Source: an uncultured Nitrososphaerota archaeon (GTDB lineage Archaea; Thermoproteota; Nitrososphaeria; Nitrososphaerales; Gagatemarchaeaceae). From it: DNA of 64,000 nucleotides. Every line of letters begins with the position of its first letter. Position 1 is the stretch's first letter. Under the pieces are notes generated by a model. The model was not told the origin of the DNA. It saw only the letters and a program-made list of their open reading frames with translations, and did not search any database. Below are positions 2,925 to 32,150 of this stretch, one piece after another. The DNA lies in contig CAVRAG010000007.1 in assembly GCA_963718895.1 (NCBI GenBank), forward strand, positions 320,001 through 384,000. The letters run 5' to 3'. Position numbers and translations under genes: made by a program.

Positions 2925-3869
2925 CTAGGGGTTTCGTCCGACCAGCCACTCCAACACCGCTGCGGCGCCGTAGAGCTTGTTCTCGCCCTGACGCCAGACT
3001 ATCGAGCGCGGACCCTCGATGACTTCATCGGTGATCTCCAGGCCACGGTGAGCGGGGAGGCAGTGCATCACGCTCACGTCTTTCTTCGCCACCTTGAGGA
3101 GGTTCGAGTCTATCTGATAGCCGCGGAAGGCCCTCAGCCTTCTCTCCTTCTCGGCCTCCTCCCCCATGCTGACCCAGACGTCGGTGTAGAGGACGTCGGC
3201 GCCGGAGGCGGCCTGTGCCGGGTCCGTGAGGACATGGACCTCGCTTCCCGACGACAGGCCGAGTTCGACTGCCCGCTTGAGAATCTTCTCGTTGGGACGG
3301 TAGTTCTCTGGACAGCCGACGGAGATGCTCATGCCCACCGTGGCCGCGCCTAGGAGGAGGGAGTTGCAGACATTGTCGCCGTCCCCGATGTAGGCCATCT
3401 TGAGACCCCTCAGCCTCTTCTTCACCTCGAGAACCGTGAAGAGGTCGGCCACGACCTGGGTGGGGTGCTCGATATCGCTCAGCGCGTTGATTGTCGGGAC
3501 TCCGGAGAAGTCGGCGAGCTGGTTCACGACCTCCTGGGAATAGACCCTTGCGGCTATCGCGTCCAGGTAGTCGCCGAGTATCCTCGCGGTGTCCTTGACG
3601 GGCTCCCCGCGGCTCAGCTGCAATTCGTTCGCCGAGAGATAGAGCGAGTGGCCGCCCAGTCTGAGGGTCGCGACCTCGAAGCTGGTCCTCGTCCTGGTGG
3701 AAGGCTTCTCGAAGAGCAGGCCGACCACCTTCCCTCTGAGAGACACGATCTCCTTCCCGGCTTTGATCTCCCGCTTGAGTCGTCCCGCCCTCTTGAGCAG
3801 CGAGCCGAGCTCTTCGCCCGAGAGGTCTGCCATCGAAAGAAGGCTTCTCATTGATTGGGCCGTCTTCAT
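2925..3869 (-). CDS. argF: Ornithine carbamoyltransferase
   Basis: FEKPSTRTRTSF, HPTQ, YTDVWVSMG, MHCLPAHRG motifs. Confidence 0.95.
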   Translation of the reverse strand: MKTAQSMRSLLSMADLSGEELGSLLKRAGRLKREIKAGKEIVSLRGKVVGLLFEKPSTRTRTSFEVATLRLGGHSLYLSANELQLSRGEPVKDTARILGDYLDAIAARVYSQEVVNQLADFSGVPTINALSDIEHPTQVVADLFTVLEVKKRLRGLKMAYIGDGDNVCNSLLLGAATVGMSISVGCPENYRPNEKILKRAVELGLSSGSEVHVLTDPAQAASGADVLYTDVWVSMGEEAEKERRLRAFRGYQIDSNLLKVAKKDVSVMHCLPAHRGLEITDEVIEGPRSIVWRQGENKLYGAAAVLEWLVGRNP

Positions 3870-3921
3870 CGCCGACACTCGTGGGCGTTTAAGGAGACCG
3901 GAAGGTCAGGTCGCCTCGCAG

Positions 3922-21365: not shown

Positions 21366-21440
21366 CGGGCCCGGCCGGATTTGAACCGGCGGCATCTAGC
21401 TTCGCAGGCTAGCATTCTATCCATACTGAACTACGGGCCC
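21366..21440 (-). tRNA. tRNA-Arg (GCG), intronless, CCA not encoded
   Basis: Reverse complement folds into a cloverleaf: GGGCCCG acceptor, anticodon arm CTAGC-CTGCGAA-GCTAG, T arm GCCGG-TTCAAAT-CCGGC. Confidence 0.97.
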
Positions 21441-29941: not shown

Positions 29942-30737
29942 TTCCTCCCGGAGCAGATCCGGGCGCTCGAGACGGGATAGACGTCATCGGGGACATCGCG
30001 ATAGTGAAGCTGAGCGAGGATGCCAGGCCGTACGGCGCCGCTGGTCGGCCAGGCCGATCATGGCGGCGATGAAGAACGTGAAGGGCGTCTTCGACCAGGA
30101 GGGAGGGATCGAGGGCGACTTCCGGCTCGGCAACCTCCGGCACCTCGCGGGGGAGGAGAGGACCATCACCATCCACAGGGAGAACGGGCTCAGGCTCAGG
30201 GTCGACGTCGAGACGTGCTACTTCTCTCCGCGGCTCTCCACCGAGAGGCTAGGATCGCGGACCTCGTCGAGGACGGGGAGGTCGTCCTGAACATGTTCGC
30301 CGGGGTCGGGCCCTACTCGATCACGATCGCCAAGCGAAGAAGGTCGGAGGTCTAGAGCAACGAGCTGAACGAGGCCGCCTTCAGGCTCCACCTGGAGAAC
30401 AACAGGCTGAACAAGGTCGAGGCGCGGTCTGAAGATGCTCAACGTGGACGCGATGACGCTGCCCGAGGACCTCCGGGTCAGGTTCGACAGGATACTGATG
30501 CCCCATCCGTCCCAGTCCGACCGCTTTCTCGGCACCGCGCGGCGGCTTCTCAAGGAGGGCGGCTGGATACACTACTACAGGCACGTCTCCGGTGCAGACG
30601 TCGACGAGGCGCGCACGAACCTTGGGCAGGAGCTCCGGCAAATCCTCGGCGAGAGCGTGACGTTCTCATCCAGGAAGGTGAGGGAGATCGGCCCCCACTA
30701 CATCGAGCTCGTCGCCGACATTCAGGCGACCGTCTGA
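29905..30737 (+). CDS. trm5: Trm5/Met-10+ family tRNA methyltransferase (frameshifts)
   Basis: [44 protein letters not shown]. Confidence 0.85.
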
Positions 30738-31300
30738 AGCGCCGAACGTGCGGCGTGTGCCAGGAGCTTCGCAAGCCTCACCGGTTCTGGGACGCCGCCC
30801 TGGAGCGTGAACGACTCGATCACCCTTCTGGCGTCGGGCTCGGAGATCGAGGTCAGCCGTGCGTAGACGCTCTTTCCGGTCCCCAGCTGCATGCGGGTAC
30901 GATCTCCGAGCATCCTGTATCGTCGGACCTTGCCCTCGGGGTCCTCGAACTGCGCTCGGATCGAATCCTCGATTCCGGCTGATTCCCTGTAGGTGAGACA
31001 TATGACCGGCCGACCCGTCTTCTCCGACAAGGCGTCGAGGTCCACTATGTTGTAGTGGCTGATTATGCAGCCCGAGAGCATTACCACGTTCACGTCCTCT
31101 CTACCGAGGCTCCGGTGCATCCCGATGAGCGAGGAGGTCGCGTCGTCCCCTCCCACCCTCGCCCTCCCGAAACAGATGCCGTCCACGACGAGGTCGGACC
31201 TCATCACCACGCCGCCCAGCACGGAGAACGAGTCGCCCCTGCGGAAGCTCTCCGAGATGCCCAGGACCCTTATCGCCCGCTTGTTCGGGTGGACCCTCAT
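30722..31300 (-). CDS. DUF99 / endonuclease V-like protein
   Basis: VLGISESF, GVVMRSDLVVDG, VGGDDAT, YNIVD, VPEPVRLAKL. Confidence 0.85.
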   Translation of the reverse strand: MRVHPNKRAIRVLGISESFRRGDSFSVLGGVVMRSDLVVDGICFGRARVGGDDATSSLIGMHRSLGREDVNVVMLSGCIISHYNIVDLDALSEKTGRPVICLTYRESAGIEDSIRAQFEDPEGKVRRYRMLGDRTRMQLGTGKSVYARLTSISEPDARRVIESFTLQGGVPEPVRLAKLLAHAARSALQTVA

Positions 31301-31386: not shown

Positions 31387-31452
31387 GGAGGCTCAGACAA
31401 ATGCCTTCTCTTCATACAGAAATTTTCGTAACTCTGATTCATCACTGCCCCC
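31387..31452 (-). ncRNA. C/D box guide sRNA targeting 23S rRNA
   Basis: Minus strand: GGGGGC-A-GTGATGA (C) ATCAGAGTTAC GAAAATTTCTGT ATGAAGA (C') GAAGGCATTTGT CTGA (D) GCCTCC; terminal stem; TTTATA about 24 nt upstream. Confidence 0.85.
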
Positions 31453-31544
31453 AAGTCCCACGGGCCGTCTTGGAGTATAAAGAGGTATTCGGGCCGTGCG
31501 CCAAGAAGCGGCTCGGTTTTGCGTCCCCGGACCGCGAAGGCCCC

Positions 31545-32150
31545 TCAGATGATGACCAGCCCCTCGTCGAATCGGCTGACGGCGAGGGCGAAGTCCCTGA
31601 GCGCGAAGACGGGAACGATCGGCACCCCCTGCACCTGCTTGACCGGAGAAGCTAGAAGCGTCAGGACGACGGGCAGGACCGGTGACCTGATTTTGGCCTT
31701 CCTCTTGTATCGCGCGGTCCGCTCGGTCTGGCTGGAGGCGACCCGCTCGAGGGTCGGACCAGAGAAGGTCTTTGCCCAGTGCTTGCAGTCGACGGAGAGG
31801 GCGAGCGTCTGCGATTCGGCGAAGATGTCTATCTGTCTCCGGGGTTTCGTGATGACTATGTTGGTCCTCACGAGGTAGCCGCAGGCCCTGAGCACTCCGG
31901 CACAGAAGCCTTCGAACTCCCGCCAGGTGAGGGAGGAGCTCACGGACTCGATGCTCATGCCGCCCCGGATGAGGACGATGGCGGCGAGGACCTGATCGTG
32001 CACAAAGCCCGTCAGCTCCTGCTGGAGGTCCAACCCCATCTGCGAGGACACGTCGGCGAGGACCGCTGACGCCCCCTCCTCCCCGTCCATCTTCCTTGCA
32101 AGGATGTCGAACGGTCTCTCTGGCACGGGCGGCGCTCTGTGGAGATCCAT
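31545..32150 (-). CDS. PD-(D/E)XK nuclease, Mrr/restriction endonuclease-like
   Basis: LTWREFEGFC...GY...RQIDIFA...VDCKHW. Confidence 0.75.
   Translation of the reverse strand: MDLHRAPPVPERPFDILARKMDGEEGASAVLADVSSQMGLDLQQELTGFVHDQVLAAIVLIRGGMSIESVSSSLTWREFEGFCAGVLRACGYLVRTNIVITKPRRQIDIFAESQTLALSVDCKHWAKTFSGPTLERVASSQTERTARYKRKAKIRSPVLPVVLTLLASPVKQVQGVPIVPVFALRDFALAVSRFDEGLVII

Follow-up and report, generated by a model that had tools for sequence, protein, structure and literature searches.

A predicted dual-guide box C/D sRNA for helix 69 and A1938 of the 23S rRNA in an uncultured Nitrososphaerota archaeon and its relatives

Helices 68-71 of the large subunit rRNA have been described as archaeal methylation hot spots, with predicted sites that are dense around A1912 (Dennis et al., 2015; PMC4644070). 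The E. coli numbers used in this article were taken from the alignment in that study, in which the E. coli row is gap-free in this region and A1912 corresponds to alignment position A2178. The supplement lists several archaeal box C/D sRNAs with guides for these helices. Sac-sR125 of Sulfolobus acidocaldarius and sR109 of Ignicoccus hospitalis (IHOsR109) were both assigned to alignment positions A2204 and G2172, corresponding to A1938 and G1906 in E. coli, and Ignicoccus sR91 was assigned to A2179 and G2211, corresponding to A1913 and G1945, the latter of which has counterparts in yeast (Gm2288) and Arabidopsis (Gm2278). Fast turnover has been reported for the methylation guides of archaea, with exceptions (Lui et al.).

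Several of these nucleotides have counterparts in the eukaryotes. For the corresponding stretch in yeast, a mapping study gives Am2256 (snR63), m5C2278, Am2280, Am2281 (snR13) and Gm2288 (snR75), and the site tables of a Dictyostelium study equate Am2256/snR63 with human Am3739/U46, and Am2281/snR13 with human Am3764/U15A/B and Arabidopsis Am2271/AtU15. The clan of U15/snR13 has been placed in the last eukaryotic common ancestor by Hoeppner and Poole (2012), who mention archaeal counterparts at conserved eukaryotic sites, one (sR12/snR70) in one passage and three in the discussion, with homology judged unproven for all; the A1938 (U15/snR13) site is not among the counterparts named in these passages.

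Here, we describe an element of 66 nt in a stretch of 64,000 nucleotides (hereafter the window) from an uncultured Nitrososphaerota archaeon, the genome of which consists of 3.13 Mb in 11 contigs, is 80.5% complete and contains one 23S gene. The element is located on the minus strand and is read from 31452 to 31387. Judging by its sequence, it is a real but unannotated box C/D sRNA gene of a known type, and we consider it very probable that it represents an independently transcribed archaeal sRNA that guides the methylation of A1938. Its features and neighbors in the window are as follows.

31387..31452, minus strand: the whole box C/D sRNA, 66 nt, as predicted from sequence, fold, homologs and stem covariation
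31447..31452, minus strand: 5' arm of the terminal stem, GGGGGC, which pairs with GCCTCC at 31387..31392
31439..31445, minus strand: C box, GTGATGA, after the stem arm and a single A
31427..31438, minus strand: D' guide, ATCAGAGTTACG, 12 nt, the core of which, TCAGAGTTAC, pairs with 23S G1910-A1919 in the helix 69 loop
31423..31426, minus strand: position of the D' box, AAAA, degenerate and without GA, followed by TTTCTGT
31409..31415, minus strand: C' box, ATGAAGA, identified by sequence
31397..31408, minus strand: D guide, GAAGGCATTTGT, 12 nt, the core of which, AAGGCATTTG, pairs with 23S C1935-U1944
31393..31396, minus strand: D box, CTGA, identified by sequence
31387..31392, minus strand: 3' arm of the terminal stem, GCCTCC, with stem covariation
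31476..31481, minus strand: TATA-like promoter element, TTTATA, with its center about 27 nt upstream from where the stem and the sRNA begin
31545-32150, minus strand: gene for an Mrr_cat-like nuclease, the upstream neighbor
30722-31300, minus strand: Endo_dU gene, the downstream neighbor, with its start codon 86 nt past the end of the sRNA
31401..31655, plus strand: open reading frame of 84 amino acids that overlaps the sRNA on the opposite strand

The C box, C' box, D box, six-pair stem and TATA box described in the initial annotation, which had left the strand implicit, are thus all present, as is the degenerate D' box. The terminal stem contains one G-U pair and is closed in the minimum-free-energy fold, and the TTTATA element (31481..31476) is spaced as archaeal TATA boxes usually are with respect to the start site. 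The C and D boxes fit the archaeal RUGAUGA and CUGA motifs near the 5' and 3' ends, and the C' box of the internal pair is acceptable. With two spacers of 12 nt, the 66-nt RNA falls inside the archaeal range for box C/D sRNAs, for which spacers of about 12 nt and total lengths of 50-70 nt have been given (Breuer, 2021). We also searched for the architecture as such, using a pattern that asks nothing of complementarity (C box, 12-nt spacer, any 4 nt, a gap of 3-10 nt, C' box, 12-nt spacer, CTGA and at least five of six terminal pairs). The sRNA itself was the single match in the 64-kb window, and 100 simulations of the window by a first-order Markov model gave none.

The sRNA sits in a gap of 244 nt between the two minus-strand genes and is present in a single copy in its own genome. 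No family in Rfam 15 reaches its gathering score on the sRNA, the best archaeal match being sR11 (21.7 bits versus 39). In the whole window, an Rfam gathering score is exceeded only by a tRNA gene, at 21366-21440 on the minus strand. A scan for bacterial-type promoters and terminators, which does not apply to archaea, found nothing. Five public sequencing runs with this stretch, at shares of 0.04-0.43, are DNA or probable-DNA runs and none is an RNA run; they have no bearing on expression or habitat.

Both targets are found in the 23S rRNA of the same genome. The sequence GTAACTCTGA, which comprises the helix 69 loop and the closing G, and the sequence CAAATGCCTT each occur exactly once, and each guide core is complementary to its target over 10 of 10 nt. 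The identification in the initial annotation of a dual-guide box C/D sRNA for the helix 69 loop and A1938, with complementary 10-mers in the host 23S, is supported. Counted upstream from the D box, positions 2-11 of the D guide are paired and position 5 faces A1938. The N+5 rule selects the third A of CAAAUGCC, which the E. coli row of the alignment identifies as A1938, as had been proposed. With AAAA as the presumed D' box, positions 2-11 are again the ones that pair in the D' guide, and position 5 faces A1913. The N+5 pairs are U-A1938 for the D guide and U-A1913 for the D' guide in the 12-nt register.

The helix 69/71 target sequence was identical in all 13 of the 23S stretches that were read in relatives, the 14th locus being without the stretch. 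With invariant targets, there is no guide-target covariation to test. We considered co-variation for the relatives in which the first guide bases are altered to AACAGAG or ACCAGAG, and rejected it: the helix 69 sequence is kept in the 13 stretches, and the duplex is thus simply shortened.

The guide pair is not confined to the genus. A DNA search of 41 relatives recovered clear copies both within the genus and from further families of its order, and a scan of public prokaryotes with one genome per species, using a pattern of both guide cores and the D box, recovered at least 120 loci. Among the matches listed, the record titles are nearly all Nitrososphaeria or Thaumarchaeota, including Nitrosopumilus, Nitrososphaera, Nitrosotalea, Nitrosocosmicus and others. 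The initial annotation had suggested a survey of TACK and Asgard genomes; within the phylum itself, both guide cores at the right spacing were found in 104 of the 401 genomes of an even sample that includes the window's own, versus one match to a reversed control pattern in the same 401 genomes. The pair was identified in families f12 (56/56), f15 (2/2), f32 (15/24), f26 (11/17), f42 (5/12) and f24 (4/32), and is missing, among others, from f19 (0/16), f22 (0/17), f27 (0/23), f28 (0/25) and f35 (0/15). A C' box followed by the D guide was found in 92 of the 401 genomes, including families without the pair, such as f35 (15/15), f34 (5/5), f29 (7/12) and f39 (5/12), and two of the f35 copies are identical letter for letter to S. 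acidocaldarius sR125 over this stretch. The family patterns contain the guide cores, and these counts therefore show distribution and are no independent test of guide conservation.

The genome also encodes the proteins that are expected to work with such an RNA. Genes for Nop5 and fibrillarin are adjacent on contig 8 and a gene for L7Ae is located on contig 7, all above the Pfam cut-offs. We infer transcription, particle assembly and both methylations from these features and from the established mechanism of box C/D sRNAs. The sRNA would fold into a terminal stem with a C/D kink-turn, on which L7Ae, Nop5 and fibrillarin would assemble. The D guide would then pair with nucleotides 1935-1944 of the 23S rRNA, and fibrillarin would 2'-O-methylate A1938, which faces guide position 5 as counted from the D box. 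The D' guide would pair with the entire helix 69 loop, nucleotides 1910-1919, with A1913 as the predicted target in the canonical 12-nt register. With the GA of the D' box lost in this lineage, the D' half may methylate poorly and act mostly as a second anchor. Such an anchor could keep the stretch from helix 69 to helix 71 on the particle during ribosome folding.

The D' box varies across the family in both sequence and position. We surveyed 162 distinct family copies, weighted strongly to the Nitrosopumilaceae. In 93 copies, mostly of the Nitrosopumilaceae type, a spacer of 13 nt is followed by NNGA (CTGA in 86), for which the N+5 target is A1912, and in 47 copies a spacer of 12 nt is followed by NNGA (CTGA, CGGA, ATGA, TGGA, CCGA, CAGA, GTGA and others), for which it is A1913. 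Nine copies have CGGA after a spacer of 10 nt, which gives U1915 if that box serves, and a single copy has a spacer of 11 nt, with C1914 as the target. The latter (L006) reads AGAA at the D' position and was counted in this class for the GAGA that starts one base earlier. The remaining 12 copies are without NNGA at 10-14 nt after the C box, leaving the target undefined, and include the window's own copy (AAAA) and its closest relatives (AATA, ACAA, ACTT). In the Nitrosopumilaceae-type copies (L034-L153), the 13-nt spacer with a canonical CTGA moves the predicted site from A1913 to A1912, and the 12-nt copies elsewhere predict A1913.

For the copy in the window, we infer that the D' target is either A1913 or A1912, of which A1913 is preferred, mainly because both guides then share the register of positions 2-11. 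The range of 1913-1915 that had been given for the second target is thereby narrowed: A1913, the 12-nt register seen in 47 relatives, lies within it, but A1912, the site predicted for 93 relatives, falls outside. The D box is less variable, being CTGA in 146 of the 162 distinct copies. The non-pairing base beside it varies freely in the archaeal family (T in 77, A in 68, G in 11 and C in 6). In three copies from family f24 (L157, L159, L160), both guides and the terminal stem are kept, with GATA or GAAA replacing the CTGA of the D box.

The loss of the D' box raises the possibility that only the D half methylates its target, A1938, and that the D' half directs no methylation in this lineage, where it would purely anchor or chaperone helix 69 as an antisense element. 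The window's copy has AAAA in place of the D' box and the closest relatives have AATA, AGAA, ACAA or ACTT, whereas the guide of 12 nt that precedes the lost box is almost unchanged in them. Selection therefore acts on the helix 69 pairing in this lineage. The D' half itself is an uncertain methylation guide, since a canonical C'/D' K-loop requires the GA that its D' box lacks. According to published work, there are guides whose pairing is conserved although no methylation follows, and dual guides act as folding chaperones (Lui, 2018; Breuer, 2021). On the other hand, degenerate D' boxes are frequent in working eukaryotic snoRNAs (Breuer, 2021), and 140 of the 162 distinct copies keep NNGA at 12 or 13 nt, for which reason the ancestral state was probably a methylating guide. 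A D' half that has entirely ceased to methylate therefore seems to us possible but rather doubtful, and we favor a dual guide in which the D' half may still methylate, albeit poorly.

The two targets are separated by 15 nt in the mature rRNA and by 328 nt in the 23S gene (L001; G000:C8:1568000-1572001, minus strand), because an intron of about 297 nt, at about 3580-3876 of the reverse complement, is located between the 3' strand of helix 69 and UUAAGGUAGCC, i.e., between the targets of both guides. The gene spans 4,002 nt versus 2,987 positions in the model, which makes further insertions likely. In a rival interpretation, the sRNA would hold both exon ends across the intron and thereby aid splicing or ligation. 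The stretch was assembled in 11 of 23 genomes from the genus. In eight of these 11, an intron interrupts the 23S gene past helix 69 and ahead of the second target. There are at least two insertion registers, which differ by about 7 nt: one follows CUCUC (G001 and the window's own genome) and another follows UUAAGGU (G007, G009, G012 and G021), the junctions in G005 and G010 being unread. In a genome from another family of the phylum (L209, G153:C14), the 23S gene breaks into non-rRNA sequence a few bases past helix 69, after UUAAC. In this phylum, introns thus seem to recur between helices 69 and 71.

These observations place introns where a tether between exons would act, but the sRNA family reaches far beyond the intron: it is kept in three genomes with no intron between the targets (G017, G018 and G020) and occurs in all 56 genomes of family f12, the 23S genes of which were outside the intron survey. 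All genomes checked keep the sRNA, and neither its presence nor the state of the D' box tracks the intron. We consider a role in splicing very unlikely, retain the dual guide for ribosomal methylation as the preferred interpretation and treat the intron as an observation separate from the sRNA.

The terminal stem provides evidence for an RNA gene that does not depend on the guides. The 162 distinct copies were thinned to 83 that are at most 93% alike by a simple similarity ratio. In this alignment, the terminal stem shows standard pairs in 85.9% of the cells, versus 70.2% in shuffles, and pairing falls to 25.9-56.4% of the cells when the partner is slid by 1-3 columns. Compensatory changes on both sides were observed at all six pairs, in 66 cells versus a shuffled mean of 18.4, and the covariation score was reached by none of 500 shuffles. 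The arms pair, for example, as GGGGGC/GCCTCC, CGAGGC/GCCTCG, GGCGTC/GACGCC, GACGAC/GTCGTC and GGTGGC/GCCACC. Positions 2-4 of the C box (T, G and A) are invariant and the TGA of the C' box is nearly so. The CAGAGTTA of the D' guide is also invariant, yet it is part of the pattern by which the family was collected; more generally, the collection patterns contained both guide cores, which in part accounts for the lack of guide variation in the alignment.

The surroundings of the gene are conserved at shorter range. An A/T-rich hexamer (TTTATA, TTAATA, TTATAA, TTATAT or TTTATC) is located at a near-equal distance upstream in all 16 of the G+C-rich loci from the same genus for which upstream sequence is available, a truncated 17th locus falling outside this count. 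Throughout the genus, the sRNA is flanked by the Mrr-like and Endo_dU genes in an unchanged order, and a nearby Mrr-like gene also accompanies it in three further families of the order (L018, L019 and L020). No Endo_dU gene was found beside the sRNA homologs at the 30 phylum-level loci tested. That the element is no RNA gene at all, but a chance motif, a leader of the Endo_dU gene that starts 86 nt downstream on the same strand or a part of the overlapping open reading frame at 31401..31655, can for practical purposes be set aside in view of the absence of the architecture from 100 simulated windows, the other gene contexts outside the genus and a combination of stem covariation, lengths of 66-81 nt that do not vary in threes and invariant guides, which is the pattern of an RNA and not of a coding sequence.

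How, then, does this dual guide compare with the published archaeal sRNAs? The D guide of IHOsR109 has the same 12 nt followed by CTGA and the same A1938 target, and Sac-sR125 has AAAGGCATTTGT followed by CAGA, also with A1938 as the target (PMC4644070). In contrast to the loop guide described here, the D' guides of these two RNAs pair with the 5' strand of helix 69 (G1906), and both have canonical CTGA D' boxes. The core of the helix 69 loop guide, TCAGAGTTAC, is also found followed by a box in Sac-sR113, but there as the D guide of a different sRNA, and Ignicoccus hospitalis sR91 shares A1913, but combines it with G1945 rather than A1938 (PMC4644070). Both guides and both sites are thus already in print as predictions, on separate sRNAs. 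What is new here is the combination of the two guides on one RNA and the wide conservation of the pair. Our literature search, from which subscription journals were mostly excluded, found neither this pair on a single sRNA nor its wide conservation nor a catalog of thaumarchaeal C/D sRNAs, and an earlier published record of the archaeal equivalence to U15/snR13 may exist.

The comparison with the eukaryotes extends to both sites. By the published site tables, A1938 would be equivalent to yeast Am2281 and human Am3764, and A1913 to yeast Am2256 and human Am3739. The spacing of 25 nt between the yeast sites equals that between 1913 and 1938, and the bases of the archaeal mature rRNA at offsets from A1913 of +22 (C), +24 (A), +25 (A) and +32 (G) fit the yeast sites, giving five of five base identities. 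The initial annotation had named A1938 as the site of yeast Am2281 (snR13) and human SNORD15, which agrees with the tables (Am3764, U15A/B), and it had missed that A1913 is also a eukaryotic site (yeast Am2256/snR63, human Am3739/U46).

The similarity to U15 is visible in the guide itself. The Rfam consensus AGGCAUUUGUCUGA, a segment of 14 nt that comprises the guide and the D box, is identical to the sRNA in SNORD15/U15/snR13 (RF00067, clan CL00045), in Drosophila snoMe28S-Am2589 and in plant SNOR75, and the 3' end that the initial annotation had given for SNORD15 was right. Tetrahymena TtnuCD10 and Giardia GlsR6 are close at the 3' guide and D box. The likeness to snR13/SNORD15 noted initially thus holds for the 14 nt of the D guide and D box, but does not amount to membership in SNORD15 or its clan: the sRNA scores 14.7-15.3 bits, versus a gathering score of 75, over model positions 112-141 of 146 only, and against the other snoRNA models, too, it stays far under the gathering thresholds. 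The eukaryotic U15-type RNAs are about 146 nt long, and their second guides are different or absent. The sRNA would thus act like U15/snR13 at A1938, for which the equivalent targets are yeast Am2281, human Am3764 and Arabidopsis Am2271, while standing outside that family by the family's own score test. Likewise, it would share the target of snR63/U46 (SNORD46) if the D' guide works in the 12-nt register, but snR63/U46 is a separate, single-site snoRNA in the eukaryotes, to which the sRNA gave no Rfam match.

One could speculate that the family descends from a pre-eukaryotic dual guide for A1913 and A1938, the functions of which were split onto snR63/U46 and snR13/U15 in the eukaryotes. As part of the same scenario, the segment 1906-1945 would harbor a small and very old set of guided sites (A1913, A1938 and G1945), the guides for which have often been paired anew. 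Several such combinations are seen: A1913 with A1938 here, G1906 with A1938 in Sulfolobus and Ignicoccus, A1913 with G1945 in Ignicoccus sR91, and A1938 with G1945 in plant U15. If true, this would add individual guide lineages to what is common to both domains. However, the 14-nt identity does not separate ancestry from convergence, because it spans only what a shared target and the N+5 rule dictate, and we regard this joint scenario as improbable, though it deserves to be stated.

Our findings indicate that the sRNA family is one of the exceptions to the fast turnover of archaeal guides, since the pair is kept across many families of the phylum, mesophilic ammonia oxidizers included. The pair is conserved to an unusual depth. 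Its predicted sites both lie in domain IV, on the face at the subunit interface, and correspond to nucleotides that are methylated in yeast, human and Dictyostelium. The family is a well-defined candidate for asking whether guided methylation at an intersubunit bridge predates the split between archaea and eukaryotes. Rfam has no model for this family, which could readily seed one. For the genome itself, the result is ordinary annotation, one further C/D sRNA gene, and its practical uses are modest. At one locus elsewhere in the phylum (L200, G213:C3:46270-46435), the sRNA homolog starts about 10 nt past a tRNA-like 3' end, where a T-arm-like GGTTCGAATCC is followed by CACCCCC, and this locus may represent a tRNA-sRNA dicistron.
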